A DNA stretch of 62,362 nucleotides, filler included, from Stramenopiles sp. TOSAG23-6 (taxonomy: Eukaryota), in assembly GCA_900128565.1 (NCBI GenBank). It is 12 parts of 12 records of this genome, joined end to end, with 100 filler letters (N's around TTAATTAATTAA, not from the genome) between each part and the next. Parts side by side here need not be neighbours in the genome. Positions count along the whole stretch, not along the records: positions 5,239 to 10,366 come from LT636971.1; positions 10,467 to 15,593 come from LT636972.1; positions 15,694 to 20,820 come from LT636973.1; positions 20,921 to 26,038 come from LT636974.1; positions 26,139 to 31,246 come from LT636975.1; positions 31,347 to 36,451 come from LT636976.1; positions 36,552 to 41,654 come from LT636977.1; positions 41,755 to 46,848 come from LT636978.1; 4 more parts are not named here. One strand, written 5' to 3'. Positions 5,239 through 62,362 of the stretch are shown here, in pieces. The notes under the pieces were generated by a model, which saw only the letters and a list, made by a program, of their open reading frames with translations, did no database searches and had not been told where the DNA came from. Each line of letters starts with the position of its first letter. The first letter of the stretch is position 1. Position numbers and translations under genes: made by a program.

Positions 5239-5297
5239 CGAAATTTTGTACCTAACAATTTTTTTAGATTTTTTTGAAATATTTTTCCAAAATACAT

Positions 5298-5673
5298 TCA
5301 ACATTAAATCGTGGAAACCAAATGAATCTGAAGTTAGAGAAAGTACGTTTTCATCATTTAAAAAAAAAAAAAAAATATTTCGTACGAAATTTTGTACCTA
5401 ACAATTTTTTTTTTTTTAAATATTTTTCACTATACTTCTCTTGAACAACGATTACACCAACATGAAGACAAAGGTGTAGTGTCTGGCGATGAAAATGTTG
5501 AAATTGAGCAAATTGAAAAAGTTGTGCAAGAAAGTATTACTAAAAGTTTTGGTTCCAATGGTCAATATTGGAAAGATTTAGGTATAGAAGAAGAGAAAAC
5601 ACGAAATCAAGTTGCTGATTCGATTTTTGCTTCTCTTATAGACGATGTGGTGAAAAATCTTCAATTGAAATAA
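5298..5673 (+). CDS. C-terminal exons of a hypothetical protein (DUF4378-like end ..QVADSIFASLIDDVV); intron 5343-5437
   Basis: Frame is restored (EVRE-T-LEQRLHQ) by removing GT..TATACTT; the contig starts inside an intron-family copy. Confidence 0.5.
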
Positions 5674-5793
5674 AAAAAAAAGTATCGAAATTTCAACTTT
5701 ATTTTTCTATATAAGCGTCTTTATCTTGTTTTTATAGCCATTTCACGACTACTAGCATTTGCGAAATCGAATAGTGGCAAAACAAGTGGGAAA

Positions 5794-7785
5794 ATGCCAT
5801 TGCTTTTGTTACCTGCACTTGCATGTAAAAACAAAGAAGTTTTTTTGAGTGTTTTAAAAACGCATTTATACTTTTGCAGTAATGCGCGCTTGTATTTTTC
5901 GCCGTGCTTCTTTGACGACGTTCGAACAGCGACTATAACAGCAATCACAGATAAGTTTATGGTCTGGGGCGAAATTCAAGAGATATTTTTTGCCGCTGTA
6001 CAGGTCTGTGTAAACGATGTAAATGAAAAGAGAATAAACAGTTTGCATTCATTCATCGAAGCATTGCCGTCAGACTACAAGTACATTGGAGTGGAGCTGG
6101 CGACAACATTCTTTCGGCAGAGTTCAAAGATGTCTTTTGATAGAATATCTTTAGAGAAGATCATTTCCCTTTCACTTTTGGCGTTAAACAGTGTCCCCAG
6201 TCTTATTTCGATAGCAAAAAGGACGAGAAGACATGGCCATGTAGCAATGATTTTGGCTCATTTGCAAGATGTATGTGACAAAGAGAATGCGATCGGTAAA
6301 GAACTTTTAGATCTTGCTCAAAATTATATTAGGTCATCTTTGCTTGACCCGAAGAACTATTCCACAAAAGCTTCGAATAAGAACTTGTTGAAAATTTTCT
6401 CTCTTGCTGTTGGTGTAGATGATTGCTCTTCTATCTCTGGTAGCTTTGATAACAATGGCTTCCTTTCTCATTGCTGTCATTTATTACAGAGCTTAAAACA
6501 ATCAGAAAGCGTGACAAAGATTGCAAAATATTTGGTGAATCTCGTTCTCTCCTTCGATAATTCGCAATTTTGCAAGATTCTAGAGAATCGAATGGTTGCT
6601 GCCTCAAGTTTCGCCACGCTTTTATTTTGTACACAGTTTAGTAAGACTGAGTTTGAAGACTTTCACGAGCGTTTCATTGTGAAGAGTGCATCGCTAAAAC
6701 AGACTTCAAGGTGGAATATGATCTCAATTATTTTTGACCCGAAAAAGAAATCTGGTGGCCCGAGTAGAGGAGCTGCACCAGACTGTATTCCCGGCTTAAA
6801 AGATTACATGATATGCAACGAAGGCGCTAACGTGGCTCCAACACCGAAACTTGTACAAGGTACAGTGAATGATGATGGTAGTGTTATGTTTATTTGGGAA
6901 GCAGTTGGATCGAGAGTCTATCGCGTCAAAGCATGTGGTGGAATAAAAACATCCGATTTTACTATTGAGTGTTCTTGCCCAACACCTACTTCGGGAACTT
7001 TTGGAGACAGTATTGGTACTTGTAAGCACGGTGCTAGTGCCCTGAGGTCAGTTGTTGATAAAGGTACGACAAAGCGTAAGCGAGATCGTAACCTTTCGCA
7101 GTATGCTGGAAATGAACATTTGTTTCATAAAATGAAAAAGCTTGGAAGCGCATTTATTTCAAAGGCAATACTCAGCAACGGCCTAAGTGATAGCATCATA
7201 TCTCAAATAACAACTTTTCTGAGAGCTGCAATGATACACGGGGCATTAAATATCATAAATGCTTTAGATAAGGTGCTGCCTCCGTCTAAACTCAATTTTG
7301 AAGACATGCGAAAGCGTAATCTAATAGCCTCTCTACTGAACAAGGATATAGTAAGAGCAAAAATTCATAGTTTTCCACCAGTTCGTCGTCTTGCTGAAGA
7401 GAGACTTAATTACATGCTAGCATTTAAGGATGAACCGATATTTTCATGGCGTCAAGCGCTTGGAAAAGGCGTGTCTGTACCATATCGCTTTGCAGTAGAT
7501 TTTCTTCGCTCAAATCAGGAAACAATGGATTTTCTCTTAGGCCAAGGCATTGCACATGCTAGAGAAATTGCTCGAGAATTTAATAAGAATTCCAAGCATT
7601 TTTCTGTACAGGCAACAAGTTTTGGCACTGGAAAACGTGCTAGTGTGCGTTTAACTAAGACTCGCCAGTACTTTAACAATGTATTGCAGGAGCACTCAGA
7701 GAGACTGTCGGAGATGGTGCAAATCAAAAAATTGCTACGCCAAAACAACTCCCAAAAGAAGGCACGTAGTATTATTATTAATTAA
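5794..7785 (+). CDS. Hypothetical protein with SWIM-type zinc finger
   Basis: 663-aa intronless ORF with CSCP-x14-CKH preceded by a beta-rich segment (V.GSRVYRV), typical of SWIM fingers. Confidence 0.7.
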   Translation: MPLLLLPALACKNKEVFLSVLKTHLYFCSNARLYFSPCFFDDVRTATITAITDKFMVWGEIQEIFFAAVQVCVNDVNEKRINSLHSFIEALPSDYKYIGVELATTFFRQSSKMSFDRISLEKIISLSLLALNSVPSLISIAKRTRRHGHVAMILAHLQDVCDKENAIGKELLDLAQNYIRSSLLDPKNYSTKASNKNLLKIFSLAVGVDDCSSISGSFDNNGFLSHCCHLLQSLKQSESVTKIAKYLVNLVLSFDNSQFCKILENRMVAASSFATLLFCTQFSKTEFEDFHERFIVKSASLKQTSRWNMISIIFDPKKKSGGPSRGAAPDCIPGLKDYMICNEGANVAPTPKLVQGTVNDDGSVMFIWEAVGSRVYRVKACGGIKTSDFTIECSCPTPTSGTFGDSIGTCKHGASALRSVVDKGTTKRKRDRNLSQYAGNEHLFHKMKKLGSAFISKAILSNGLSDSIISQITTFLRAAMIHGALNIINALDKVLPPSKLNFEDMRKRNLIASLLNKDIVRAKIHSFPPVRRLAEERLNYMLAFKDEPIFSWRQALGKGVSVPYRFAVDFLRSNQETMDFLLGQGIAHAREIAREFNKNSKHFSVQATSFGTGKRASVRLTKTRQYFNNVLQEHSERLSEMVQIKKLLRQNNSQKKARSIIIN

Positions 7786-9620: not shown

Positions 9621-10322
9621 ATGACAGAAGATATATTCGTTCCCCTCAATAGTGATTGCGAAAGTACTGTAAGGTATGAAAGACAACCTAGTAAACATCG
9701 TTCATCAGAAGAAATACTTGAAGTGCTAGACTTGGTGGGCGAAGCGTTCCCTGACGTCGTTGACGGCGAAATGGAATTCGAAGAGGACGATTCAAGTATT
9801 TTGCCAGGTGTACTAAATCTAACAAACACAATTCTTGGCTCAGGGGTAATCACAATGCCATATGCAGTACGCTTAGGTGGTATTGGAAGTTTTGTAGCTA
9901 CTCTTTCCTTCATTGCTTGGCTTAGTGATTATGCTGTGAAATTGATATTCATCGCTGTCGAGCGTTCCCGATTAATTGCTGCATACGACGAAAGCGCTGA
10001 ACGTTTACATCGCCCATCATTAACGATTCGAAGCGAAACTTTGATTCAAAATAAAGCAGAGTTTCTTGTAAGTTACGGTACGCTAGGAAGACAACTATTG
10101 TACGTTTTCTATGAATTTCTAATTTAATTTTTTTTCATACGAAATTTCGTACCTAACGATTTTTATGTTTGAAATATTTTTTCATAGTCCATGGCTATAG
10201 GAACATTACAGAAAGTGAATGTAATCCGAGCGAAAATGGTTCCTTTGTTGAGCCTTGTGATCCGAACCTATATGGCCCAAACGCTTCAATCAGCAGTTTG
10301 TGGATGGAAAGAAGATGGCGAT
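9621..10322 (+). CDS. Amino-acid transporter, AAAP/SLC38 family, N-terminal part
   Basis: NLTNTILGSGVITMPYA matches SLC38 TM1. An intron-family copy starts at 10100; the downstream exon join is unresolved. Confidence 0.75.
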
Positions 10323-10519
10323 GTATGTTTTATTTTTTTTTTTAAACAAAAAAATCGAATTTTTTTNNNNNNNNNNNNNNNNNNNNNNNNNNNNNNNNNN
10401 NNNNNNNNNNTTAATTAATTAANNNNNNNNNNNNNNNNNNNNNNNNNNNNNNNNNNNNNNNNNNNNTGTACCTAACAATTTTTTTTAGATTTTTTTTGAA
10501 ATATTTTTCCAAAATACAT

Positions 10520-11011
10520 GTGTAGTACTTCTGTATCCTTGGGTTGGCAATTATTCAGTCAAAAATGTACGTTTTCAGCATACATTTCAAAAAAAACAAA
10601 AGTTATTATTAAAACATTGTACCTAACAATTTTTGTACTCAAAAACAAAATATTTTTTCACAATACATATTTGGTTTTATTATTACAGGAGCAATTGAAA
10701 AGAAAATCTCTATTCAATCCACCACCATCTTCAGATAACTTCCATAATTCTAACGAGGAGAATGATTTTTTACTCTTTTTACTTCAATGTATCAATCAAT
10801 TTGTATTAGGTAATGAAGAATTGTGTCAGAATATTGTACCGTATTTGATTTTGGAATCACCAAAAATGAAAAGTTATTCAAAACATGAAATTATTCTTCC
10901 TCAATTAAAATCCGCTATTGAATCTTTATTACGATTGTGTATAGAAAAGCGAGCAGGTTTGCTACCAGCAGTCCGAAATATTGTAATGAATTGTCCAAAT
11001 CATTTGGAAAT
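10520..11011 (+). CDS. Internal exons of a hypothetical protein; GT-AT intron 10567-10668
   Basis: Frame is continuous (..FSQK-Y-LVLLLQ..) after removing the 102-nt copy. Confidence 0.55.
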
Positions 11012-11103
11012 GTATGTTTTATTTTTTTTCAAATTCGAATGTTTTTTTCGTACGAAATTTTGTACCTAACAAATTTTTTTTCAAATATTTTTCTAAAATA
11101 CAT

Positions 11104-11830: not shown

Positions 11831-14800
11831 CTACCGTTTACCTCGATATCTTAACCCAGAAGAAGTAGAAGACGCAGAAGAAACATTCTTACTTCCCGTC
11901 GAAGTAGACTTTGTTACATTTTCGGATGTACTACTTAATAATTCCGCTGCGGCAGCTTTCCGTCTACGCCAGTACATAAAGGCGCATCCTCCCCACACAA
12001 AAATATTTCCAGAACAGAAGATCAGTAAACCACCAAACACTTTAATAAATGTCATAAATACTGGCATTAAATCAGAAAGAGTGGTTGCCTTCGCACTTTC
12101 CATCATTGCTGAAAATATATCTGGAGAAAATACCCACGTACAGAACCTATCCCATACAAACGTACCAACTAATGCTAGAGAGACGAGATACATTACATGA
12201 AAACGAAATGCATCATCAGGAAATGGTTCCAAATGAATTAAACCATTTACATATGGGCTTACAGCCCACGCGCATGCACCCACGCCAGCAAAACATAAAA
12301 ATAACGACAAAAATAAAGCGTGATTTTCAATTGTACCTTTCATCCATGGTCTACCTTTGTAGTTTACAAATAAAACAGCAACGATTGATGATGTTTCTAC
12401 CAAAAATACGACTGTATTCATCAAATTTGGCATAAATGGACGTGACCACATAAACATAATATCTGCAAAAGGGTCGGCAGTTACATCTGTAATGTCAGAT
12501 TCTGAGGAATCCGATATTGCTTGGAGTGCATCATAATCATCATCATATGTCTTTGCAGCATTGCGATTGAAAGCAACCACAGCTTTTAATGCTTTTGGGC
12601 CCATTGCTTCTGTTGCTAGATGTACTGCTGAAACCATACAATACAAATGTATGCAGGCCTGGCCAATCATTGAAATAAATATTGTCGGGTGAAATAGTGA
12701 ATGCAATGGCCGTGTACGATGCATTTTATCTACAGGAGTTGCGTATGAAAAGGCTAAAGATGCAATCATAATAAGCCAAGACGAAGCCATCAACTGCCGT
12801 TCCGAACTTCGTGCACCTTCAAGTGATAAAGCTGAGAGAGTGTACGCTGAAATTATACATTCAAGCATCATATATAGTAAAAAAATATGTTTGAAGTTTG
12901 AATTTTGTTAGGCGCGTGACAAAATTGGACAACAAAAACAAATTAAAATTGGAATGAATGATGAAAACATACATGATCTGTTGCTGTTGAAGGGCACTAA
13001 GTAAAGTACAACGCCCTTGGCGAATAATATCAACAACCGTGCGAATCGTTGGCGTCCTTGAGGTAAAAGGAGCAGCCACTGATGCATCACCTGGGCGCAC
13101 AACAGGAAGCATACCTCCCATATCTTCCATATCACCTAAAGCATCCATTGGATTTCCAGAATCTGCTTTGTACACATTATTCTTCGAACCAAGTCTTCTT
13201 GATTCCATTTGCATTTCATTTTTGACTCGCAAAGTTACATTCTTTAAAGCAGTCAAATTTGCCATGAAACCTGTTTGCCCTTCTGCCGCAAGTCTTGCAA
13301 GTTCTTCTTCCAGCATTTCTTTTTGTTTTCCTGCCAATTCCTTTTGTTTTGTAGCGAGAATAGCTTTAGATTTTGCCTGCATCACCGCCTGGGAACGTTT
13401 TAAATCTTCGGCCTGTTTATTCAACTCATCTTCAGTACTTCCAGCACTATTTTCAATTTTGGATAATGATGTTTTATCATCTTTAGCTGTCGTTGTGTTG
13501 GCATTGCCGTACCCTGAAAGCAATGCTAGGCCAACATCAGCTTGTTTTAATGCACCAACGTCATTACCACCATCACCACACATAAGAACATGGTGACCTT
13601 TACGCCGCTGCATCTCACGAATAAGTATTGTGAAAAAATATTTCAGAAATTTGAAATTCGTTAGGTATGATATTTTAACTAAAAATAAATGAATTCATTA
13701 AAATAATCAAAACGTACAATCTTGGCTTTTCCTTGAGGAGACATTCGAGCAAATACTTGAATAGCATCAACATGATCCCACAACGTTCCACCACTTTTCT
13801 CTGCTGCCGCTAAGAGAACTTTTTCTGTTACAACCAAATTATTATGTTTTGCAAGTTCAGGAATTCCTAAAGCATTAAAGGGAACAGAAATACGTTCTGA
13901 TACATCACCCGTTGCAGAATTCCATGTAAATTGTTCACCAGTACTATCAACAGTCAATACCAATGACGAATAGCTATCCGTACCGATTTTAGATAAGACA
14001 TTCTTCTTAGAGTCACTTCCATTTTGTACAACATTGTCACGGCATATACCCACCTCTTTAGCAACATGAAGCGCTGTCAAAGGCGCATCACCTGTAATCA
14101 TTGCAACGGAATGGTCAGATTCACGCAAGGATCCTATTACTATACGCGAGTCTTTGCGAATCATACAAGTGAATGCAATAAAACCAGCGAAATGTAAATT
14201 GCTTTCTACCCACTCACGAGATGGACCATCACCACCTTCTGTACCGCATTCTCCCTTTGCACATTGTTTATAAGCGAGCGCAAGCACACGCATTCCATGT
14301 TCGGCAAGATGTCGATAACTCTCATCATACCAAGATGGAGCAGCGCCTTCAGCAAGTAATGATCGTAAAGCTTCAGGGGATCCTTTGACAAGACAATATT
14401 TACCACTGGAAAGGCCATTTTGGCGCCCCTCAACTTTACACACAACACTCATTCTCTGAAGCTTCGACGAGAAATGATACCGATGAAGTATCTTTGAAGA
14501 TGAAACAGCAGAATTTCGAGCTTTTTTTTCAACACTACAAATTTTATTACGAATATTATCTATATCCTTTTGTAAATCGGAAATTTGCATATTTTGTTCA
14601 GGAGTTGCAGGTGCATTACCCGATTTGATTAAATCATGTAAAGCCTTCAATTTTTCAGATACCATTTTTTCACGCTTTTTGAGATTAATTGTAGTACCAG
14701 GAGTAGCAGTGTTAGTATCTGCATTAAATTGCCATTGAACGCCTTTTAGAGCCGCGAGTTCTATAGGATCACCTACCATACCAACATCTTTAACCTTTAC

Positions 14801-15538
14801 CAAAGAGTGACACGATGCAAGAACTAATGCAGCCTCGGCGGATGATTCAGGTACTGGGCTAGTTTTACGAGGACATTTAGACACATCAAACTCTCCTGAC
14901 TTTTGTTTTGCTTTTCCTACCTTAAGATCAGGTTCTGAATTAACAGTAACTACACCAACAGGCGATAACGTATCCGTTGTAATTGTCCCAGTCTTATCAA
15001 ACAAACAATGTGAAACCTTTCCAGCATACGGAACTCGAAATGGCTCGGTGCAAAAAAGACCCGCTTTCGTGAGAGACATGAGGGCAGTATTTACAGCTAA
15101 TGCCATTTGCAGAGGAAGTCCTCGAGGAACGACAGATGTGATTATGTAATGAAGAAAAATATTTTGAGTTCGAAATTCGTTAGGTACAAAAACTTTGTTT
15201 TTTTTTTAATTGTTTTGGATTGTTTTTAATTGTTTTGGATTGTTTTGGATTGTTTTGAATTGTTTTGGATTGTTTTGGATTATTTTGGATTATTTTGGAT
15301 TAGGTGCAAAAAAAGTTTAGGTAAAAAAACATACATAATGACACATTTCAATAATAATTCATGTGTCGTTCGATCACCCTTTTCAAGTCCTTTCTTCAAG
15401 ACATATCCAGATGCAACTAAAGCAAAGAATAATAACAATAATAATGCTAAACCAATCTCTTTGGAATCTCCAGAGACTTTTTGAGTCGATGCAAACTCAA
15501 TCATCTGCATTAACTCACCTTGCGATGAACTGAACCCG
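11831..15538 (-). CDS. ATP13A1: P5A-type cation-transporting ATPase (ATP13A1/Spf1 family), 5' part missing; exons 15538-15335, 15143-13718, 13622-12973, 12869-11831
   Basis: DKTGT phosphorylation motif, TSVVPRGLP, KGSPE, MITGD, ARMSPQGK, MCGDGGNDVGALKQA, GDASVAAPFTS, IIRQGRCTL. Intact only when three non-AG introns are removed. Confidence 0.93.
12870..12972 (-). mobile_element. Intron-family copy, GT-AT (upstream exon ends AT)
   Basis: Removal restores ALQQQQI-M-MLECIISAY; body is diverged but keeps CCTAAC. Confidence 0.85.
13623..13717 (-). mobile_element. Intron-family copy, GT-TT (upstream exon ends TT)
   Basis: Removal of GTACGT..CACAATACTT restores ARMSPQGKAKI-IREMQ. Confidence 0.85.
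15144..15334 (-). mobile_element. Intron-family copy, GT-AT, expanded by a 10-bp tandem repeat (about 15210-15301)
   Basis: Removal restores LLKCVI-I-ITSVVP; internal (TTGTTTTGGA)n on the + strand. Confidence 0.88.
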
Positions 15539-15766
15539 GTGTATTTTGGAAAAATATTTCAAAAAAAAATTCGTTAGGTACAAAATTTCGTACNNNNNNN
15601 NNNNNNNNNNNNNNNNNNNNNNNNNNNNNNNNNNNNNTTAATTAATTAANNNNNNNNNNNNNNNNNNNNNNNNNNNNNNNNNNNNNNNNNNNNTTTCAAA
15701 AAAAAATCGTTAGGTACAAAATTTCGTATGAAAAATAAATTCGAAATTGAAAAAAAATAAAACATA

Positions 15767-21653: not shown

Positions 21654-22032
21654 TCTAGATTTGAGGGAAGTTGATCAAGCTAAGAAGTTTCTTGAAATAA
21701 AAAAGATCTTAATACTACTGTCTACAGTCTACGCGGACACAACAGAAGAAAAGATCTCGACCAACTCACAAAAATAACGCTCAGAAATAATTTTTTTTTT
21801 CAAATTTTTATTCGAGAATGATTCAATTATTATTTCTTTCTATTCAGTATATATTAGGTACGAAATTTGTATACGGCTCGCAAAAGTCTTGATTTACCTG
21901 CGCTGTCTTCGCAACGAACACTAAAGATAATTCTACCTACAGTACTCCTCCTCTGGCGATACTCCTTCACGGCTCCCTATTGCTTTAATCTCCAACTGCT
22001 GCATTGTAATTACTTTTTAATTATCATACATT

Positions 22033-41654: not shown

Positions 41655-41833
41655 NNNNNNNNNNNNNNNNNNNNNNNNNNNNNNNNNNNNNNNNNNNNTT
41701 AATTAATTAANNNNNNNNNNNNNNNNNNNNNNNNNNNNNNNNNNNNNNNNNNNNGAATTTTTTTTTCGTACGAAATTTTGTACCTAACAAATTTTTTTAG
41801 ATTTTTTTTTCAAATATTTTTCCAAAATACATT

Positions 41834-46848: not shown

Positions 46849-47112
46849 NNNNNNNNNNNNNNNNNNNNNNNNNNNNNNNNNNNNNNNNNNNNTTAATTAA
46901 TTAANNNNNNNNNNNNNNNNNNNNNNNNNNNNNNNNNNNNNNNNNNNNTTGGAAAAAAAAAAAAAAAAAAAATCGTTAGGTACGGAATTTCGTACGAAAA
47001 AAAAAAAAAAAATTTGAAATGTATTTAAAAAAAAATCATTAGGTACGGAATTTCGTACGAAAAAAAAAAAAAAAAAAAAAAATTTGAAATGTATTTAAAA
47101 AAAAAGACGTAC

Positions 47113-47442
47113 ATCAATGGGTAATTCAACAAACACAGGTCCAGGTACTCCACTTTTTGCTACTTGGAAGGCCAGTTTAAGTGTGGGTACAATATCACGA
47201 ACCCGGTTCACAGTGTAGGATTTTTTGCAGACGCCTTGAAACATTGTCAATTGATCGATGTATTTTGGAAAAATATTTCAAAAAAAAATCTAAATTTTTT
47301 TGTTAGGTACAAAATTTCGTACGAAAAAAAAAATCGATTTTTTTTTTACCGGAAAAAAAAAATTAAACGTACATATCCTGGAGGGCTCCACGTCCTTTGA
47401 GAAGTGTCGCAGCCGCTCCACCGAGTAATACCAAAGGTGATT
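47113..47442 (-). CDS. ILVBL: Two exons (47442-47373, 47257-47113) of acetolactate-synthase-like protein / 2-hydroxyacyl-CoA lyase 2
   Basis: Hand translation gives [72 protein letters not shown]; not in the ORF track. Confidence 0.88.
47258..47372 (-). mobile_element. Intron-family copy, GT-AT, close to consensus
   Basis: Removal restores the TPP-enzyme motif GALQD-I-DQ; no AG at a usable position. Confidence 0.9.
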
Positions 47443-47589
47443 GTGTATTTTGGAAAAATATTTCAAAAAAAATATATAAAAAAATTTGTTAGGTACAAAA
47501 TTTTTTTACCAAAAAAAAAAAAAAATTGTTAGGTACAAAATTTCGTACGAAAAAAAAATTTAATTTTCGAAAAAAAAATTAAAACATAC

Positions 47590-49176
47590 ATGTCATCACT
47601 TAACTTAAAACTTGAAAAATCAATGTGATTTCCAGTGGTACAGAGTATTTCAAGGACTGCATCATTTGCGGGAGTGTTTAACGCTGTGCATACAGTATTG
47701 TATACCATTTTTATTGCCGCTTTGTTTGGATTTATTTTTATATCTGGTTTATCAATGTTTGAAAAAGATTCAGTTGATTTTATCGAGAGATTTGAACTTT
47801 TCTTTTTCCCTGCTAAAACTGGAAGTACTGACAATTTGTCTAGACTACTTACTCTACTATTGGATACATCATTGCTACTATTATTAGATGCATCATTTTT
47901 CGTTTTACTAGTAATATTTTTGGTTTTACTATTGGCAATGTTTTTGGTTTTACTAATATTTTTAGTTTTACTATTCGTTTTATTACTTTTGGTAATATTC
48001 ATTGATGTTGTATTACCCCCGACATGTATTTTGGAAAAATATTTCCCAAAAAAAATCGTTAGGTACAAAATTTCCTATAAAAAACAAATTCAATTTCAAA
48101 TTTAAAAAAAAAAAAAATGAAACATACATCAATCGGAACAATCCCCAAATTCGGGGGATTCTTGGCTTTTATACCTATTTCTGTACCAAACGAATTTTGT
48201 GTCGCTATTGGGTCCCTCTGCTGCTTTGAAGAAAATAATTGTAATGATTTATTTTCTCTTGTTTGTCGCTGAATTCTTCTTCTTCCTTCGTTGTTCATAT
48301 GCGTTGTATGTATTTTGGAAAAATATTTCAAAAAAAATTTTAGAAAAAATTGTTAGGTACAAAATTTCGTACGAAAAAAAATTTAGACTAAAAATTGAAA
48401 AAAAATAAAATATACATGCGTTGTATCAGGCGACATTCCAACAGTGCTCTTTTTAAAACTTTTTGTTGAATTTGCTGAAATGGTCACAGGCTTAGTAGAC
48501 ATCTTGTTTGTAGTATCCTTTTCTCGTGAATTTCGAATATTTTGAATCCCACCAATCTTTAAACTTTCTGAAGCCCAAGATTCATGTATTTTGGAAAAAT
48601 ATTTCAAAAAAAATCTAAAAAAATTTGTTACGTACAAAATTTCGTACGAAAAAAAAATCGATTTTTTTTTTTCGAAAAAAAAAAAAAAATAAAACATACA
48701 TACAATGTCGAAGGAGATGTTTGACTACTATTGAGGTTATTGAGGTGTTTTTCTACTATTTTTTCCCCTGATTTTGATTCACTATTTGTGTTTACACTAC
48801 ATTTAGACAGAGCATGTCTAAATCCATGTATTCTAGTGAGTTTTTCAATGAGTTTTGCTGTTCTATGTTTTGTGAAAATAGCTAGCAGGTGTTTTTCCAA
48901 TGGCTTTCCATCTTTTTGACAAAATAGACTATATAACTGACTAATACTAGAGACGTCGAGTAATTTATACAAGCATCTACTTTCATACAAATCTACATTG
49001 AGTACCATTCTTGCATTGATAGGCTTTATTGTTTCAATACCAAGTAATTCTGATCGAGAAGCGCGTACTAAAAAGCTTGAGTCCCAGAATTTCAGGATGG
49101 CATTTTTAAAGTCCTCATCTTTTCTTTTTTGTTTGTCTTCTGAGGAAGAAAAACCAATCCTCAAAGATTTCATCAT
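47590..49176 (-). CDS. Multi-exon hypothetical protein, 3' end missing; GT-AT introns 48024-48127, 48308-48415, 48584-48699
   Basis: Four exons join in frame. Confidence 0.65.
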
Positions 49177-49401
49177 CTTTTTTGGAATATCTACTTTATT
49201 ACTTGAATCATTTTATTTCAATTGAAGTATCCATGAAATCATACTGACCTAAATCTATATACTACACGTAGATTTATTCACTACTATAGTAATTAGCTAT
49301 CGTAGTAGGACGTAGTACTTTGAAAATGAAACTGTAATTTTTTTTAGTATTCGTATTAAATTTAACTGCCCCGGACGAAGACTTGATGATTATTTCGTGT
49401 G

Positions 49402-50184
49402 CACAGCGGGGCACAGACCCTGTTTTTTATGCCAAATTCAGAATTTTCACTTTTTTGGTACGAATTTTCGTAGTTAATTTTTTTGGTACGAAATTTCGTA
49501 GTTAATTTTTTTTTTTTATGGAAAAGTGCTCCTTCCTCAAAAAATGACAATGTCTAATTAAACAATGTTAGGCGTAGAGTTTCTTCATGTAACTTTGTAG
49601 ATGTTCTGGGGTTAGCATTTGCAGCATACGATTTCAATCTCTACAAAAAACTCTGCCTACTTTAGAAATTAGAGCATTTTTACGATTTTTCACTTTTGGC
49701 ATAAATAGCTTGTCTTTCGACGTTGAACACCCCCCTCCCCCTTTTTTTGGTATATAGTAGCATATTCAAAGTAAATGAAGAAAAATGAAAGAATCATCAT
49801 AACCCATAATTGTTCATTACTATATTTTGATTAATTTTATTGATTATGAAATATTATTTTTTTTTAGAAAAATATACTCATCATTACCAGTTATTCTACG
49901 ATCTGCATCATATAACAATGCAACTGGTTCTCGTTCACCAGCCACTGGTTCTTCAGCCTTAAACATGTCAATTTGGTCCATTTTTTAGATTTGTGAAATG
50001 AAGAAAGTATACAAGTGAGGAATAAAAAAGTAAAAGGATTTAACTGTGTACAGGTAGCAGATGGTGAAAAAGTCAGTTCATTACTTCAAGGTACCGGGTA
50101 TCAAGCGTCTGATTATTCGCCGCAATAAATATGATTGTAACACCCCACTGGGGGGTGTGAAAACAGGGTCTGTGCCCCGCTGTG
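49402..50184. mobile_element. Non-autonomous DNA transposon (783 bp), perfect 25-bp TIRs, 3-bp TSD GTG
   Basis: CACAGCGGGGCACAGACCCTGTTTT at 49402-49426 and its exact reverse complement at 50160-50184; GTG at 49399-49401 and 50185-50187; no transposase ORF. Confidence 0.9.
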
Positions 50185-50321
50185 GTGGCCGGTGATTTTT
50201 ACTGATTTTTACTAAAAAATCACCAACTGACTCCAACTGACTTTGGCTTGAATTTGATTTAGATTGAGACGTATATGTTATTATTTGCTACTGTATTAAT
50301 AGTAAGACAACATATACAAAA

Positions 50322-51424
50322 ATGAATAATGTGTTTCAGTACAATATTGGTTCTGTGGCTCTTAAAGGGCGGCGTCCATATATGGAGGATGCAACTCTTT
50401 CAGTGAGCAGTACATGGTTGTGGAATGGATGTCAACTTCATTTATTTGGAGTACTAGATGGTCATAAAGGTACACGCGCTGTAGAGTATGTCTGCGAACA
50501 TTTCCCAACTACACTCTTCGAAACAATCAAGTTTGCTGTGAACAAGAATACTACTGATGGCACAATCTCTAGTGAAGAATCTATCATCAGAACAGCATTT
50601 ACACAAACTTCACATGAAATAGACCGAAATTTTAACATCATGGCAAAGAAATGCAACTGGAAAGATGGCGCTGTCGCTGTATTTAGTCTTTTTATTGGAT
50701 CAACGGTCTATATAGCAAACATAGGTGATTGTCGAGCTATACTGTGCCAATCAAGTAGTGATGGTCGCGATGGCGAAAATCATTCAGTCTTACCATTTTT
50801 AAAATTAGCTTGGTGTAGTACTGATCAAGTGCGTTTCCATCTTTTTCTTTTTTTTTTTTTTTTTAAATCTAAATATTTTTTTCATACGAAAATTTGTACC
50901 TAACGATTAAAAAAAATTTCACGATTTCATACTATAGACGCCAAGTTCTTCGAGTGAAGTGACACGTATCAAAAAAGCAGGCGGAATAATTAAATTCTCA
51001 AAAAAAACACGTGAAGCACGAATAAGAGGTTGTTCTTTTTCTCGATCATTTGGCGACTTTCATTTAAAGGACAATAATGTATGTTTTATTTTTTTTTTTT
51101 TACGGTAAAAAAAAAATCGAATTTATTTTTTTTTTTTGGTGAAAAAATTTTGTACCTAACAAATTTTTTTTTTTGAAAAATTTTGAAATATTTTTCTAAA
51201 ATACATGAAATAATATCAAAACCTGAAGTTACGAAAATTTGCTTACAAAACGTACAAAAATTTGTACCTAACCAAAAAAAAGAAAAAAATGATAAAAATG
51301 ATAAAAATGATAAAAATGATGATAGATGTTATTACTTTTTATTACTGGTATCAGACGGTGTTACATCAGTGTTATCAAATCAGCAATGTATCAATAATAT
51401 TCGAAAAAGTATTTTATCACTCGG
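50322..51424 (+). CDS. Protein phosphatase 2C (PPM family); introns 50829-50937 (GT-AG) and 51079-51206 (GT-AT); 3' end lost
   Basis: GRRPYMED, FGVLDGHKG, ANIGDCRAIL, STDQ-TP..EVTRIKKAGG, SRSFGDFHLK, LLLVSDGV. Confidence 0.92.
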
Positions 51425-51479
51425 TACATTTTTTTTTATTTTTTTTTTAAATATTTTTCGTAGGTAATTTTGTACCTAA

Positions 51480-51517
<38 letters not shown>

Positions 51518-51629
51518 TTTTTTAAAAAAAATTTTTTACCTAAAAAAAATTTAAAATTTTTTAAATTTTTTTTAAAAAAAATTTAAAAAATTTTAAATTT
51601 TTTTTAGGTAAAAAATTTTTTTTAAAAAA

Positions 51630-51667
<38 letters not shown>

Positions 51668-52040
51668 TTAGGTACAAAATTACCTACGAAAAATATTTAA
51701 AAAAAAAATAAAAAAAAATGTACCGAGTGATAAAATACTTTTTCGAATATTATTGATACATTGCTGATTTGATAACACTGATGTAACACCGTCTGATACC
51801 AGTAATAAAAAGTAATAACATCTATCATCATTTTTATCATTTTTATCATTTTTATCATTTTTTTCTTTTTTTTGGTTAGGTACAAATTTTTGTACGTTTT
51901 GTAAGCAAATTTTCGTAACTTCAGGTTTTGATATTATTTCATGTATTTTAGAAAAATATTTCAAAATTTTTCAAAAAAAAAAATTTGTTAGGTACAAAAT
52001 TTTTTCACCAAAAAAAAAAAATAAATTCGATTTTTTTTTT
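51107..52040. repeat. Near-perfect foldback palindrome centred at 51573/51574, running to the contig end
   Basis: ORFs 51183-51467(+) and 51680-51964(-) are identical mirror images. Confidence 0.95.
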
Positions 52041-52196
52041 NNNNNNNNNNNNNNNNNNNNNNNNNNNNNNNNNNNNNNNNNNNNTTAATTAATTAANNNN
52101 NNNNNNNNNNNNNNNNNNNNNNNNNNNNNNNNNNNNNNNNATTTTGTACCTAACAAATTTAAGTTTTTTTTTTTGAAATATTTTTCCAAAATACAT

Positions 52197-56440: not shown

Positions 56441-57154
56441 TTATACATTTATAGAATTTCTAAATGATTTACCAATTCCAAGTAAACTTTTAGCATATCG
56501 TACCAATTCATCAGTAATACTCTCATCTTCCGAATCGTTCCTTGCAGCATCTAGAAGATTTTTCATATGAACATTAATTTCATTGTCTTTTCTTCTCCTG
56601 TTTGATAATTTTGATAATTTTGATAATTTTTGAAAGCTTTGCGTTGAAGAATTTTCTACAATATTCGCGATGACTTGTTTTGAATCTATCATTAATGTAT
56701 TTTGGAAAAATATTTCAAAAAAAAATCGTTAAGTACAACATTTCCTACGAAAACAATAAATTCGAAATTAAAAAAAATAAAACTTACATTGTTTCGAAGA
56801 TGGATTTAAGATTTGAAATGTCGAAGAATTATGTTTGACATCATCCCGGTGCATTCGTTCTACTAATGCATACACATCATTGCCTCGCCGATACACCATA
56901 AGAAGTGTTAATATTCTATTATATATTTCAATATTTGGTGTTATTCCACTTTTTTCAATTTCATGCAATAAACGCAAAGCCTCGTTAGGATCCGTGCATT
57001 TTTGTAAAACTACATTGCAATGTATAGTATTAGCAACACCATTAAGCATCAAAATACTAAGAAAGTCTCGACGTTGTTGATATCGTTTCATTTTTTCGAG
57101 TTTTGATCGTCGAAGTCTTGATAAATCTTCTGAAGAATTCTTGATAGTGAGAGC
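56441..57154 (-). CDS. Pentatricopeptide-repeat (PPR) protein, C-terminal exons; GT-AT intron 56695-56787
   Basis: ALRLLHEIEKSGITPNIEIYNRIL and VYALVERMHRDDVKHNSSTFQIL. Confidence 0.75.
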
Positions 57155-57352
57155 ATGTATTTTGGAAAAATATTTCAAAAAAAAATCGTTAGGTACAAAA
57201 TTTCGTNNNNNNNNNNNNNNNNNNNNNNNNNNNNNNNNNNNNNNNNNNNNTTAATTAATTAANNNNNNNNNNNNNNNNNNNNNNNNNNNNNNNNNNNNNN
57301 NNNNNNGAAAAAAAAATCGATTTTTTTGTAAAAAAAAAAATAAAACATACTT

Positions 57353-58782
57353 CCTGCTGCAACTACGCCTTCGGACACCAACCTCAACAAAAGTAATTCA
57401 ATGTAAACAATCTTCTACGTACCTTGAATTGTTGGAAATTGTGCATAAAGAGCTCTGTTACGCAAGTGCTGATACAGGATCATTGTTATTACTAGCGGGG
57501 TTTCCACCTCGACCAATAGAAAAGCTTCTTTCAAATGTTTCTGCATCTATTTCAGATGCTTTGCGTAACAACGAGGTGATTACAGTGAAGCTTCCTGCAT
57601 CAGATGCGAAGCTTTCGCAAGCACAAAAATCTGGTTCTCAGACAACATTCAGATATAACACACGGCAAAAGAGTGCTGGAAAAAAAGCAACTCCTGCCAA
57701 AGTAACTCAGACCAATAGTACTAAACCTTCTGCACGTGAAGTATCAAGTTATTCCAAAGGTATTCAAACAATGGCATCTCTCAAGAGTAATAGTAATAAT
57801 AATAATAAAGACTCTGATTTTATAAAAAAATCGTCTCGGAGAATTTCACACACAACAAAGAATAATTCTAGTGGCAAGGTTACAACAAAGAAACCTACTA
57901 GGGAAAAGTCGTCAAGTCTAGGAAAACGTGGACGTAATTCGAAAACATTTTCTTTAGCACCTAAAAAAATGAAAGGACCAAATGACGGAATGCAGCAATC
58001 AGATCATACTGTTCATTTACTCCGTAAACTTGCCCAAAGTAGTATGGTGACTCATAAGGAAATTGTACTTGGAAATGCAAGGTTTGCCGCCGCACTTGGA
58101 GGTCACTGGGATGTGTCACCGTACAATGAAGGTGGCCAGACATTGATGCAACAAAGTGCAATGCCTAAATTAATCGTTAGATATCGAAAAGAACAACGAA
58201 AAAGCAGCTTATGGGAACATGACATTGTGGAAAGTTTAAGTAGAGAAGAATTAAGAATGACCATCAGTTATCTCCTACATGGATTAACTACGCAACAAAG
58301 AGAAAATCTTAGACTTTTTAATATGGCTCAAGCATCACCACATATGTTTTCATCATTTTCAAATTTAATTTTGTTTTTGTAGTGAATTTTGTACCTAACA
58401 AATTTAAGTTTTTTTTTTTTGAAATATTTTTTTACTTCAAACGTGTATTTTGGGCGATTGTGATACTAGAAAAAAACGAAAAACGTCCAAGTAGCGAATT
58501 AGAGACGGCTTTACCTAGGCTTTTACCTCAAGAAGATTGGTCATTTCTAACTACAAGGATTCGAAAGTTATCAAAAAAAGCATTAGCTAATTTAAAAAAA
58601 AATACACACACTTCTAAAAATGAGGATAAAAAAGGCATTGTTGCAAGTGATGGTCGATGGGTATCACATAATGAAATGTTGAAATTTGGCCGATTTGTCG
58701 TTTCGGAGATGATGAATAATAAAAAGTATAATGAAAATTTAATGGACAAAAAGAAAGCTTTTATTTGGAAAGAAACTGGAAT
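57353..58782 (+). CDS. Hypothetical protein with N-terminal ubiquitin-like/UBX (OTU1-type) domain; probable AT-AC intron 58342-58442
   Basis: The frame extends upstream as LQLRLRTPTSTKVIQC..LLLLAGFPPRPI; the join ASP-R-VFWAI is in frame. Confidence 0.6.
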
Positions 58783-58893
58783 GTATATGTATTTTTTATT
58801 TTTTTTTTTTACAAAAAAATCGATTTTTTTTTCGTACGAAATTTCGTACCTAAGATTTTTTTTTTTTTTTTTTAATATTGTACCAAAATACAT

Positions 58894-61117
58894 GTCTTCA
58901 ATTTGTGGTTGAACAAAATATTTCAACATTTGATACGGTAACACAGTCACAAAAAAAAGTAACTGTAAAATCAAAGCTAAATTTAATTGATTTAGCTGGA
59001 AGTGAAAAATGGAATATAATGCATGTATGTTTTTATTTTTTTTCAATTTTTTTTTTCTACATTTTTTTTTCATACGAAATTTTTTTACCTAACAATTTTT
59101 TTTTTTACTAACCAAAAAAAAAAAAAAAACTTTTGAAATATTTTTCCAAAATACATGATATGTCAGTAGCTCATCAACAGGAGTTACAAAATATCAATTT
59201 ATCATTACATACTTTAGGGCGATGTATAGAGAAATTATCCTCACATTCTCTACAACACATTCAAAACCCTAACCCTAGAAAAACAAAAAACCCTAACCCT
59301 AGAAAAACAAAAAGACATATCCCATTTCGTGATTCTGTCTTAACTCGATTATTACAAGATTCTCTAGGTGGAAACACAAAAACATTTATTCTTGCAATGA
59401 TTACTCCATCACAATTAAATATAAATGAAACAATATCAACACTAAAATTTGCAGACCGGGCGAAACGAATTCAGATGAAAGTGAAAATAAATCAAATTCG
59501 TAAATTAGATTTGGCGTCATTTGAAAAACTTGAAAATGAAAACAAAAATTTACGTTTTATTTTACAAAAACTTTCAAAAAATATAAATGTAGAACATTTG
59601 GACAACAATTTGGAATCTAGTACAAAAAACAATACAACAAAACAATCGAAATCATCAAATATTTTACAAAAAAATATTATAGACTTAACAAATGACGTTT
59701 TGAGATTAAAAGAAGAAAACAAAAAATTGCATAAAATGTTAGACAATCAATCTTTACAGTATTCAAACCCTACTAACCCTAGTAATACACTACATTGTAC
59801 CTCAGATCAAAATCAACAAAATCAACAAAATGATCGTGTATGTTTTATTTTTTTTTTTTCGGTAAAAAAAAAAAAAAAAATCGATTTTTTTTTTTGGTTT
59901 TCGTACGAAATTTTGTACCTAACAAATTTTTCAAATTTTTTTCTCAAATATTTTTCTACAATACATGAAGAAATCCAAATACTGAGGAGTGCTTTAGATG
60001 TAATGATATCAGGTTGTTCAAGATTTTTTAAATTAGAAATTGAGGAGGATGATTTACAACAAGTATTTACTCGTGTTGTTCAACAAGTACACGAAATAAA
60101 GGAAAAGAAAAAAAAACCCAACCCTACTAAAAACCCTAACCCTAATGAAAAAGCATGGATTTCGTCCAGTAGACGAACATCGTTTATAGCTGCTTTACGG
60201 AACCCTAACCCTAACAATACATATTCAACAAAAAATGTCCAACGATCATCAACGGCACCACTACCGAGTACATTTGCTCAAAACAGACGTTCTAATATGG
60301 TATGTTATTATTATTATTATTATTGTACAATGTAAAAATATGTTTTTTTTTTTTTTTTGAAATTTTTTACATTTTTAAAATTTTTTCATTTTTTTNAAAA
60401 AAAAAAAAAAAATTTTAAAATTCTAAAATTCTAAAATTCTAATATTTTTCATTTGTTTGACATATCAATACAATACATGTACATTTAAATACAAAATATC
60501 GCATCACAGGAAGAAATACAGATGAATCATCAGTGTTTATTGATCCTGTTGAAGTCGAAGAACGAAAACAAAAACAAAAAATAAAAAACTCACGAAAAAA
60601 AATCGAAAAACAAAGAAAATTGATGTTATATATGCAAAAAAAAGCAAAACGAGACTTGGAAATTTTACAACAACACGAAAAACAAAGAGATTGGGAAGTC
60701 GAACAGTTACGTAAGAGTAATGCGAAACGGCTACGACGTGCTCAAATGAATAAGTTAAAAGTATTAAAATATAGAGAGAAACAAATGCAACAAATTGAGA
60801 AAATGAGAAAAAATAAAACATCTACAATTAATAAAATTGATGATAACGACGAAGATAATAACATACTTGATGAGTATACTAATCAAGATATAGCTAATAT
60901 AGATAATATGGATAATATAGATGATATGGATGATATGGATAATATGGATGATATAGATAATTTGGATAATATAGATAATATAGATAATAATATAGATGAT
61001 GCTTATAATTATAAAGATGAATCAACTGACACTGAATGTCCAAAAAATGAGACGATTAATGATGAAAATGATGCTGATAGTATCAATAGTGATAATGAAG
61101 GCGATATTGTTGTATAA
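58894..61117 (+). CDS. Kinesin, C-terminal half of motor domain plus coiled-coil tail; introns 59025-59156 (GT-AT), 59838-59966 (GT-AT), 60300-60509 (GT-AG)
   Basis: [57 protein letters not shown]. Confidence 0.92.
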
Positions 61118-61497
61118 TGGTATACACGATTGTTTGTATACAATTGATTTTCTGCATTCCGTGAAAATAAAAAAAATAAAATTATCAAATACCAAGTATA
61201 TACGCTACTAGCTAGGGTTAGGGTTTAGGGTGTTGAATTCCCGGTACCAGACTAGTCAGCATGATTTTTCTCTTCTTCTTCTTCTTCTTCTTCGAACAAC
61301 AAACAACAACAAGCAAACAACACACACGCACTCTCTCGAAGAAGAAGACATAACAACAATAACAACATTGTTTCGTGATCCTACTACGGACAAACTACAT
61401 ATCTCATTATCGCGATTTGTTCATTCTAATTTCCCAAAGAGTATAGTGTAGTGTTATCCATCTATATATTTTGTATATATTGCATAGTCTAAAGAAT

Positions 61498-62305
61498 ATG
61501 TCTTCCGAAACAAAAGAAGCACAAAAGGAATCCAGAGATGAATGGCCAACTTCTCCAGAGGATTATGAACTCACACGTAAGATTGGTGAAGGAGCATTTG
61601 CAAAGGTCTATGTCGCAAAGTGTCCAACAAAGAACATAGATGTGGCTATTAAAGTCATGGATTTGGAAAAAGTTACGTCAAACTTGGATCATCTTAGACA
61701 AGAAGTTACTACAATGAAATTATGTAGACACAAAAACGTTCTCCCTCTCTATACAAGCTTCAATGTCAAGCGTGAATTATGGTTAGTGATGCCTTATATG
61801 GATAAAGGTTCTCTTCTGGAAGCTATGCGACAATTAAAGAAACTTGGTCGGACTAGCGAGCTCGACGAAGATTGGATTGCTTTTATTCTGAGAGAAGTTT
61901 GTCATGGTCTAGACTATCTCCACTCATCAGGTTGGGTTCATCGAGATATCAAAGCAGGAAATATTTTGTTAAATTCCAGTGGTGATGTAGTCCTAAGTGA
62001 TTTTGGTGTAGCTGGTATTTTGACAAATCCTGACCCAATCAATCATGATAATAATCGAAACACTTTTGTTGGTACCCCATGTTTGTTTTATTAACCCTAA
62101 CCCTACTATCAAATGTATTTTTTTTTTTTTGGTTTTCGTACGAAATTTTGTACCTAACTTTTTTGATGATACAATTTCGTGTTTTTTCACAATATATGCT
62201 GGATGGCTCCGGAAGTAATGAAGCAAAGCGCGGGCTATACAGAAAAAGCAGATATTTGGTCCCTTGGCATTACTGCCTTGGAGTTGGCTAAATCATATGC
62301 ACCAT
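61498..62305 (+). CDS. STE20-family Ser/Thr kinase, OXSR1/SPAK (Fray)-like; GT-AT intron 62081-62197; 3' end missing
   Basis: [61 protein letters not shown]. Confidence 0.92.
62081..62197 (+). mobile_element. Intron-family copy, GT-AT, in the kinase activation segment
   Basis: Only removal of these 117 nt gives GTPCWMAPE; the first AG after the branch motif lies beyond APE. Confidence 0.92.
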
Positions 62306-62362
62306 GTATGTTTTATTTTTTTTTATTTTTTTTTTGTATGAATTTTTTTTTTTTTTTTTTTT

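Follow-up and report, generated by a model that had tools for sequence, protein, structure and literature searches.

The introns in the 62,362-nt stretch of Stramenopiles sp. TOSAG23-6 DNA analysed here (hereafter the window, made of 12 contigs) are copies of a single repeat family, as was seen when their neighbourhoods in unrelated genes were printed and compared, and most of them end in a dinucleotide other than AG. For the 39 complete copies that were curated, the last two bases removed were AT in 31, TT in 3, AC in 1 and AG in only 4. The dominance of GT-AT among non-AG ends (35/39 in all) had been claimed in an earlier note on this DNA, which treated the introns as an intron class and missed the single introner-like family, whose copies share one sequence. 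These copies are probably spliceosomal introns made by an introner-like mobile element, with an acceptor fixed by the position of the element's tail. The observation of non-AG-ended introns was confirmed on the DNA and the earlier interpretation partly supported, the reading given here being conditional on RNA evidence.

The genes carrying the family include those for a P5A-ATPase, a kinase, a kinesin, a PP2C, a thiamine-pyrophosphate (TPP) enzyme and a SPRY-protein. In the window, the 20-mer GAAATATTTTTCCAAAATAC occurred 35 times with at most three mismatches (0.02 expected) and TACCTAAC 55 times (0.9 expected). Complete copies were 88-191 nt long, with a median of 108 nt and 18.8% GC; the set consists of 37 copies used for the logos of ends and consensus, plus two introns of contig 9 read by eye, and 35 copies entered the frame test described below. 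The consensus layout is GTAYGTTTT..., then CGTACGAAATTTTGTACCTAAC, then AAATATTTTTYCAMAATAC plus 2 nt. Copies begin with GTAYGTTTTATTTTTT, often followed by AAAAATCGAATTTTTTT, and continue with CGTACGAAATTTTGTACCTAAC, a T-rich stretch, the tail (G)AAATATTTTTYCAMAATAC and two more bases. Two subfamilies were distinguished, GTATGT with ...TTCCAAAATAC and GTACGT with ...TTCACAATAC.

The donor was GT in 39/39 copies, followed in 37 by A/G/T-N-G/A-T (hexamers GTATGT 19, GTACGT 8, GTATAT 3, GTAAGT 3, GTGCGT 2, GTGTGT 1 and GTTTGT 1). A branch-like box, followed by T-rich sequence, was an exact TACCTAAC in 28 of 37 copies and a variant with one or two mismatches in 9. Its distance to the inferred 3' end was 30-47 nt for 35 of these copies and 64-65 nt for two, so that the 35-45 nt given previously was roughly right. 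The termini of the element are GTAT and ATAC, and ATAC ends 27 of 37 tails. Stops were present in all three frames in 15 of 39 elements, and 33 of 36 were oriented in sense to the longer flanking ORFs (open reading frames). Diverged copies, for example 12870-12972, retain only the donor, CCTAAC and the ATATTTTT..A.TAY tail with its two further bases, and their conservation in old copies argues for constraint there.

Just upstream of the branch box TACCTAAC lies a small hairpin-forming repeat, GTACGAAATTTTGTAC. An inverted repeat GTACGA-AATTTT-GTAC precedes the box, for instance at 38262-38285, and most folds show it as a small hairpin that extends into the first bases of this box. An element-like sequence with a degenerate tail and without the GT (…CACAT/ATGTTTTCAT…; slashes mark junctions) was observed at the end of an OTU1-like ORF (58340-58440, +); it could represent a dead copy or else belong to a 3' untranslated region.

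Contigs of an independent seawater DNA run carry the element at 95-100% identity, in thousands of records. From this run, 4887 contigs were placed on a single window contig (46949-51570), 2939 of which fitted at two places of that stretch; the depth sums over contigs in this read comparison are no measure of copy number or intron depletion. A scan of a metagenome contig collection with the 20-mer gave 15 loci, all of them chance matches in AT-rich DNA and none of the family.

The position of the 3' junction was examined by a frame test on the 35 complete copies, in which the 5' cut was placed at the GT and the frames of the upstream and downstream ORFs were picked independently. The offset past the tail motif that joined the two frames was +2 in 29 copies, +1 in 3 and +0 in 3. 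When flanks were unambiguous (40 codons or more in each ORF, and no less than double the next frame; “clear” in Table 1), 23 of 25 copies required +2 and two required +0, which differs significantly from the one third expected by chance, as determined by a binomial test (p = 1.5e-9). The earlier claim that removal from GT to two bases past the motif restores the frame holds for the 29 copies; the three +0 elements do not fit it.

Junctions were also compared with homologous proteins. Joining the P5A-ATPase exons 15543-15335, 15143-13718, 13622-12973 and 12869-11834 gave a frame of 1107 amino acids with no stop, which was aligned by MAFFT with 41 homologues, 22 of them displayed; all three of its junctions lie within strongly conserved blocks. 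The junction LLLKCVI/IITSVVPR was gapless in the displayed homologues except the public model P0124, and tblastn pieces abutted there. The junction GKAKI/IREMQR was gapless in 21 of 22, the exception again being P0124, which is without IRE, and QQQQIM/MLECIISAY was gapless in the displayed homologues that cover it, P0124 aside. In the kinase, exon 1 ends at residue 190 of OSR1 (2vwi_A) and exon 2 starts at residue 192. The same one-residue step was found in further chains, for example 3dak_A, 7b30_A, 4u8z_A and 2xik_A, and in Pfam Pkinase (positions 161 and 163), and the residue between the exons is the split Cys codon of GTP-C-WMAPE. For the kinesin, residues 13-39 of exon 1 correspond to positions 214-238 of Pfam Kinesin and residues 6-105 of exon 2 to positions 248-327; these coordinates are contiguous once extrapolated to the exon ends, and the exons were also aligned to KIF1A. 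By structure, Pfam and MAFFT alignments, the kinase (62081-62197), kinesin (59025-59156) and three P5A-ATPase junctions lie where the earlier note had put them. Judged by alignment to homologues without a gap, the exact junction was confirmed at the three P5A-ATPase introns and the STE20-kinase intron.

The PP2C junction LKDNN/EIISKPEV, also proposed previously, is a clear +2 and compatible with the Pfam PP2C coordinates; PDB searches with the PP2C exons gave no PP2C match. For the TPP enzyme (ILVBL/HACL-like), the +2 cut yields GALQD-I-DQLTMF, in agreement with the motif GALQD-I-DQ read before, and the downstream exon, the only one with a significant structural match, aligns with oxalyl-CoA decarboxylase (2c31_A) from residue 124. 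However, the ORF rule alone is ambiguous at this intron, TPP exon B reaches only E = 1 in the structure search, and the contiguity of the gene rests on the motif reading. A 72-nt in-frame stop-free segment was observed in the PP2C exon (51252-51323, +), with a GTAC start, TTTGTACCTAAC inside and a GATGAT end. The PP2C profile coordinates fit better without it; an additional GT...AT intron and an exonised copy are both possible readings of this segment.

Use of a nearby AG accounts poorly for these introns. By our own count from the AG lists, 12 of the 29 introns joined at +2 had no in-frame AG between -30 and +45 nt, and use of an in-frame AG, where present, would usually delete at least three codons. 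In the kinesin, an in-frame AG 24 nt further 3' would cost eight residues of the loop after DLAGSE. A rule of the first AG downstream was rejected: AG-ended copies aside, the first AG past the tail was in frame in about one third of cases on our reading of the lists, which is the chance level, and such AGs would delete IRE from the P5A-ATPase and WMAPE from the kinase. The previous statement that nearby AGs are unusable is borne out by the 12 introns and by the loss of IRE and WMAPE.

Unused AGs were present between the branch box and the cut in 8 of 37 copies, in four of them 13 nt past the branch A. Since the distance from the branch box varies over 30-47 nt, and reaches 64-65 nt in two copies, a simple ruler from the branch point is unlikely and was rejected. 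The predicted cut keeps register with the tail motif of about 19 nt, at a fixed 2 nt past it, and not with the branch box. The earlier proposal was that the acceptor is set by branch point plus motif, or by distance, rather than by AG; its tail motif is supported, its ruler from the branch point unlikely. A canonical-looking in-frame acceptor, ttattattacag/G, was observed at 10669-10686 (+), 18 nt past the element at 10567-10668, and is a possible alternative 3' site.

The dinucleotides flanking the element were identical in 25 of 37 copies (AT/AT 23, TT/TT 1, AG/AG 1) and unequal in 12, and an additional copy with TT/TT flanks was recognised by eye. G follows the downstream dinucleotide in 24 of 37 copies and C precedes the upstream one in 15 of 37, so that a typical site reads C-AT-element-AT-G. 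Such same-dinucleotide flanks look like the 2-bp target-site duplication of a small DNA transposon, a point on which it also bears that AT is common in window DNA anyway and that no empty site was seen.

These flanks leave room for the same removal in RNA with both ends shifted by 2 nt, from the upstream flanking dinucleotide to the C of ATAC, so that the introns would be AT-AC; we regard this as unlikely. Because AT stands on both sides in most copies (23 of 37), the GT-AT and AT-AC readings give the same mRNA there, and 27 of 37 tails finish in ATAC. A(+1)/C(-1) is moreover the only non-GT-AG terminal pair known to function in both spliceosomes, AT-AC termini being chemically compatible. However, the 5' dinucleotide would then vary among seven forms (n=37; AT 25, TT 4, AA 3, GT 2, and AC, AG and CA), whereas GT is invariant, which favours the GT...NN reading. 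In both copies ending in ATAC+AG (36725-36835 and 37152-37262) the shifted NN...AC reading gives an in-frame TAG, whereas GT...AG is open; these two AG-ended copies favour GT...NN, on thin evidence. U12-type splicing was rejected on its defining motifs (RTATCC donor 0/39; TCCTTRAY branch box in the last 45 nt 0/39), and the GTAYGT block would lie 2 nt off its usual U1/U6 register in an AT-AC intron.

On the preferred reading, the copies are GT...NN introns that arose where a short, non-autonomous, introner-like element landed. The element carries a strong GTAYGT donor in its first bases, the presumed branch-point box TACCTAAC, a T-rich tract and the tail AAATATTTTTYCAMAATAC, and with its GTAT...ATAC ends it would insert with a 2-bp target-site duplication, mostly AT in C-AT-G. 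The frame is restored when the element is removed together with one copy of the flanking dinucleotide. Such a cut starts at the G of GT and falls 2 nt beyond the tail, which makes AT the usual end of the intron (TT or AC in a few copies and AG in 4). First-step chemistry would be ordinary, at GTAYGT and TACCTAAC, and the acceptor would be set by the tail motif. A protein reader of the tail, either a divergent U2AF-like protein or a step-2 factor, is a guess made by analogy with Fritillaria. While the anatomy, the copy family, its strand-specific placement in genes and the junctions demanded by frames and homologues are shown here, we infer that removal takes place in RNA, by the major spliceosome, with branching at TACCTAAC and a factor reading the tail. 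Indirect support for splicing comes from the yeast-like donor and branch box kept in old copies, the T-richness, the stops, the sense bias and the presence of the element in seawater DNA. The wider proposal is that an introner has invaded an abundant lineage of marine stramenopiles (MAST-3-like), that the major spliceosome removes its thousands of copies at a non-AG acceptor, and that the tail of about 19 nt sets the cut 2 nt downstream irrespective of the two bases there; in our estimate it has an even chance of being correct.

Several points weigh against this interpretation. The sequence does not determine the exact boundary of the 25 copies (of 37) whose flanks are identical, and the evidence against the shifted ends comes from two copies that are paralogues, in a gene whose function is unknown. 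Three elements need +0 (11012-11103, 58783-58893 and 47443-47589). Two of these are probably chimeric contig joins through the repeat: 58783-58893 connects an ORF without kinesin similarity to the middle of a kinesin motor, and 47443-47589, which has two branch boxes, connects a non-TPP ORF to about residue 94 of a TPP-enzyme fold. No explanation was found for 11012-11103. A GU...AU intron agrees poorly with present knowledge of the second catalytic step. No exon-exon joint was found when contigs of three poly(A) RNA runs were compared with 46949-51570, but these contigs covered only element pieces and one 209-nt piece of PP2C exon and are uninformative either way. RNA-library contigs hold element pieces, one of which continues into another locus. 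Searches of the protein collection with P5A-ATPase exon 3 and HSP90 as queries found no same-species fragment spanning a junction.

The removal in RNA might be non-spliceosomal, for example by a structure-guided endonuclease and a ligase acting on paired intron ends, although this seems improbable. Paired-end removal has been proposed for euglenid nonconventional introns and for Amoebophrya introner hairpins. The GUAU and AUAC ends can pair, leaving the removed 2 nt as an overhang, and this terminal helix was part of the minimum-energy fold in 4 of 8 copies; Amoebophrya elements have inverted and direct repeats at their boundaries (PMC7789003). Yet the eight copies folded no better than shuffled sequences (z -0.4 to -2.1), the helix was missing from the three diverged copies folded, and the partner position still holds A in the 8 GTACGT copies, which leaves the fourth pair unmaintained. 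Guidance by a terminal helix was rejected, the helix being only 4 bp, with no covariation and no fold signal, and the donor and branch box conserved in old copies would not be needed on such a route.

There is only a slim chance that no precise removal occurs at all, and that the window holds disrupted genes, cryptic AG splicing or artefacts of a repeat-rich single-cell assembly. The assembly is indeed fragmented at the repeat, with at least one inverted duplication and two joins through the repeat that are probably chimeric, and the public P5A-ATPase model takes a downstream AG at intron 2. Against this, chance would give one third per frame class, versus the 23/25 observed, four junctions are gapless relative to homologues, AG use would delete IRE and WMAPE, read-through is impossible in the 15 of 39 elements with stops in all frames, and the flanking exons are intact and conserved. 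Model P0124, which is letter-identical to the window exons (11834-15543, -), mis-handles all three non-AG introns: at junction 1 it translates 16 intron-tail residues, at junction 2 it uses the downstream AG and drops IRE, and at junction 3 it reads into the intron. In 10 or more places it also cuts out genuine P5A-ATPase coding sequence as false introns.

Precise excision from DNA, as of ciliate internal eliminated sequences, with the sequenced DNA being germline-like, is the least credible. In its favour, inverted repeats at the termini and a 2-bp repeat at the flanks are present, and the precise loss of an element with one flanking repeat is the behaviour of transposase-derived excision. 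Against it, bulk seawater DNA carries the element in abundance, whereas ciliate eliminated sequences are absent from bulk DNA, although contigs could miss a minor element-free form. Element pieces joined to other sequence were also present in the RNA libraries, the sense bias of 33/36 is expected of RNA processing instead, and nuclear dualism is not known in stramenopiles.

The preferred reading, a GT...NN intron family left by an introner-like element, was compared with known systems. With U2-type introns the family shares a GT donor with an extended consensus and a branch-like box with a T-rich tract; a terminal AG was found in only 4/39. Yeast-type introns (GTATGT...TACTAAC...YAG) share the near-invariant GTATGT, and the branch box corresponds to TACTAAC with one inserted C. 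Yeast uses the first suitable AG past the branch point, whereas in the window AGs 13 nt past the branch box were skipped in four copies and the end is AT. U12-type introns also tolerate non-AG ends and have their acceptor placed by position, but their branch box lies about 10-20 nt from the end, versus 30-47 nt for the branch-like box here. Euglenid-type nonconventional introns are without conserved borders and have their ends drawn together by a stable helix, whereas the donor is conserved here, with a 4-bp helix in 4 of 8 folds.

The introners of Micromonas, Aureococcus, dinoflagellates and fungi (Gozashti et al. 2022, PMC9860276) are likewise many near-identical short introns in unrelated genes, with terminal inverted repeats, a flanking direct repeat as left by DNA transposons, and splice signals of their own; an aquatic protist as host is a further shared feature. 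Aureococcus introner elements use canonical splice motifs (PMC7789003), in contrast to the 35/39 non-AG ends and the flank repeat of only 2 bp in the window. A survey starting from annotated GT-AG introns would presumably miss this family. In the same paper (Farhat et al. 2021), Amoebophrya, a marine protist, has a repeated intron family with terminal inverted repeats and with direct repeats over the exon/intron borders that make the border ambiguous, as here, and its elements are compared to MITEs (miniature inverted-repeat transposable elements). Those elements show no clear terminal dinucleotide signature, and their inverted repeats measure 8-20 nt and their direct repeats 3-5 nt, whereas the window family has a uniform GTAYGT, a conserved branch box, one dominant 3' end (ATAC+AT) and an inverted repeat of 4 nt (up to 7 with a mismatch). 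For Fritillaria borealis, Soo et al. 2026 (PMC13326754) infer that the major spliceosome handles introns without a terminal AG, with divergent U2AF paralogues recognising the non-canonical 3' ends. There, however, the donor is non-canonical too, 95% of introns falling outside GT/AG, and no single repeat family makes up the introns; in the window the acceptor alone departs.

The GT..ATAC-NN type, which the earlier note did not recall as described, had no published description in the literature searched. No description of MAST-3 introners or MAST-3 non-canonical introns was found in the full-text literature, the supplements of PMC5778133 and PMC7789003 aside, and none of such introns in Incisomonas, as judged from the matches listed. 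The consulted part of PMC5778133 reports single-cell stramenopile genomes, a prediction pipeline oriented to GT-AG and few predicted genes in MAST-3 assemblies, and contains no mention of unusual introns. Non-canonical introner elements were already known from Amoebophrya; the window family stands apart in that its donor and branch box are orthodox and a single non-AG end dominates.

The terminal AG is among the most conserved signals of eukaryotic gene expression. Large-scale breakers of this rule are few (euglenids, Amoebophrya and Fritillaria), and each is informative on how the spliceosome chooses its sites. If the preferred reading is true, 3' splice-site choice would here be independent of AG and rely on an altered acceptor-recognition or step-2 factor, and a transposon would make introns without supplying or borrowing an AG. 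The case would be unusually clean, with an orthodox donor and branch box and an acceptor that alone departs, at a constant spot past a defined motif; in so short an element, the bases that position the second-step cut are directly testable. Public gene catalogues of these organisms based on GT-AG would be systematically wrong, possibly with low gene counts and apparent pseudogenes, and for genomes of this kind the existing gene sets and calls of pseudogenes may have to be revised.

Table 1. Copies and parts of the element family in the window. Feature strings give donor, end of tail and the two bases after the tail motif; flanks are upstream/downstream dinucleotides; “+2” and “+0” are offsets from the frame test.
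Position	Strand	Feature	Evidence or remark
404-541	-	Element/intron GTAAGT...ATAC+AT, flanks CA/AT	Clear +2; in-frame AG 3 nt further downstream
673-765	-	Element/intron GTAAGT...CTAC+AT, flanks AA/AT	Clear +2; in-frame AG 6 nt upstream
5239-5297	+	3' part of element, contig start, ...ATAC+AT	
5343-5437	+	Element/intron GTACGT...TATAC+TT, flanks AA/TT	+2 best, ambiguous
10100-10192	+	Diverged element/intron GTACGT...GTCC+AT	+2 best, ambiguous; internal AG out of frame
10467-10519	+	3' part of element, contig start	
10567-10668	+	Element/intron, 102 nt, in frame and open, undecidable	...ttacag 18 nt downstream
11012-11103	+	Element, flanks need +0 (exception)	Frame test
12870-12972	-	P5A-ATPase intron 3, old diverged copy CGCCTAAC, ...CTATAT+AT	Clear +2; homologues
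13623-13717	-	P5A-ATPase intron 2, GTACGT...ATAC+TT, flanks TT/TT	Clear +2; homologues
15144-15334	-	P5A-ATPase intron 1, 191 nt, ...CATTAC+AT	Homologues; tblastn
15539-15593	-	3' part of element upstream of P5A exon, ...ATAC+AC	
20934-21026	-	Complete element	Downstream exon ends after 13 nt at contig end
26140-26229	-	Element	Downstream exon cut by contig end
26501-26588	-	Element/intron GTATAT...AGTAC+AT	Clear +2
27114-27221	-	Element/intron ...ATAC+AT	Frames unscored, N in upstream exon
27369-27456	-	Element/intron GTACGT...ATAC+AT, flanks GT/AT	Clear +2; no AG from -30 to +45
28764-28862	-	Element/intron GTGCGT...ATAT+AT	Clear +2
29245-29351	-	Element/intron GTGTGT...ATAC+AT	Clear +2; flanking ORFs 223 and 614 codons
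29986-30079	-	Element/intron GTATGT...ATAC+AT	Clear +2; flanking ORFs 362 and 263 codons
31146-31244	-	Element ...ATGT+AT	Upstream exon lost at contig end
36552-36607	+	3' part of element, contig start, ...ATAT+AG	
36725-36835	+	Family copy ATAC+AG (canonical GT-AG)	Shifted reading gives in-frame TAG
36944-37043	+	Element/intron ...ATAT+AT	Ambiguous, +0 and +2 open
37152-37262	+	Family copy ATAC+AG, paralogue of 36725	Shifted reading gives in-frame TAG
37927-38056	+	Element/intron ...ATAA+AT	+2 best; short upstream exon
38222-38329	+	Element/intron, consensus copy	Clear +2; no in-frame AG nearby
38569-38711	+	Element/intron	Clear +2; unused AG 13 nt past branch box
38977-39086	+	Element/intron, flanks AC/AT, informative for boundary	Clear +2
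41755-41832	+	3' part of element, contig start	
45647-45773	-	Element/intron	Clear +2
45873-45972	-	Diverged element/intron GTACGG...AGTAC+TT, flanks TT/TT	By eye; outside frame-test counts
46060-46208	-	Diverged element/intron ending (AT)n	Ends +/-2 nt, both GT...AT; outside frame-test counts
47258-47372	-	Intron in ILVBL/HACL-like thiamine-pyrophosphate enzyme gene	Motif; ORF rule ambiguous
47443-47589	-	Element, two branch boxes, flanks need +0	Probably chimeric join
48024-48127	-	Element/intron	Clear +2; no in-frame AG
48308-48415	-	Element/intron GTATAT...	Clear +2
48584-48699	-	Element/intron	Clear +2
50829-50937	+	PP2C intron, same branch box, CTAT+AG (canonical)	
51079-51206	+	PP2C intron LKDNN/EIISKPEV	Clear +2; Pfam PP2C
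52141-52196	+	3' part of element, contig start	
55296-55383	+	Family-B copy ATAC+AG, flanks AG/AG	Clear +2
56695-56787	-	Element/intron GTAAGT...	Clear +2
57155-57206	-	3' part of element, contig end	
58783-58893	+	Element, flanks need +0, non-kinesin ORF to mid kinesin motor	Probably chimeric join
59025-59156	+	Kinesin intron	Clear +2; Pfam Kinesin; KIF1A alignment
59838-59966	+	Element/intron in kinesin tail, flanks GT/AT	Clear +2; no in-frame AG
62081-62197	+	STE20/OSR1-like kinase intron, GTP-C-WMAPE, GTTTGT...ATAT+AT	2vwi_A; Pfam Pkinase
62305-62362	+	5' part of further element, window end	

The 12 contigs of the window, each 5,056-5,138 nt long, stand in size order and are not one locus. 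They are separated by 100-nt spacers of N44 + TTAATTAATTAA + N44 (5139-5238, 10367-10466 etc.), so that the neighbourhood of contigs is meaningless and features crossing a spacer are artefacts. The DNA is AT-rich, with 27%-40% GC per contig. About 17 of the 24 contig ends, counted by eye, lie inside a copy of the element; the assembly evidently breaks at the repeat. An inverted duplicate was observed at the right end of contig 10 (~51100-52040, centre near 51573), with PP2C exon and element on both strands, and has the look of a chimera that arose in whole-genome amplification or in assembly.

Eukaryotic genes in the window code for an endoplasmic reticulum-type HSP90, WDR3, a Sam50-like Omp85 protein, a P5A-type ATPase, a KH-domain protein, a kinesin, a STE20/OSR1-like kinase, a PP2C, DUF4116 proteins, a TPP enzyme and a SPRY-protein. 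The HSP90 is 74% identical to its best match, an EukProt protein, and 57% to that of Cafeteria roenbergensis, while the best match of P5A-ATPase exon 3 in the protein collection has 52% identity. In the ESM Atlas the HSP90 matched bacterial HtpG clusters only, which is uninformative on taxonomy. The public protein GSMAST32.ASY1.ANO1.386.1 is letter-identical to the window P5A-ATPase exons in every aligned block (840 identities), with only gaps and mis-modelled stretches outside these identities. Its name and this identity suggest that the source organism is a MAST-3-like marine stramenopile.

Long genes free of the element were observed at 20921-26038 and 31347-36451 (HSP90, 655 codons; KH protein, 605 codons; a 1701-codon frame covering a whole contig), so that intron density is very uneven. 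A search of the window against Rfam matched 0 RNA families. Telomere-like (AACCCT)2-3 repeats were found in 8 places, including 1012-1029, 43556-43567, 59265-59300, 60132-60143, 60201-60212, 61214-61225 and 62093-62104. Some of them lie in coding sequence, with two copies within a kinesin loop, and one lies in the kinase intron.

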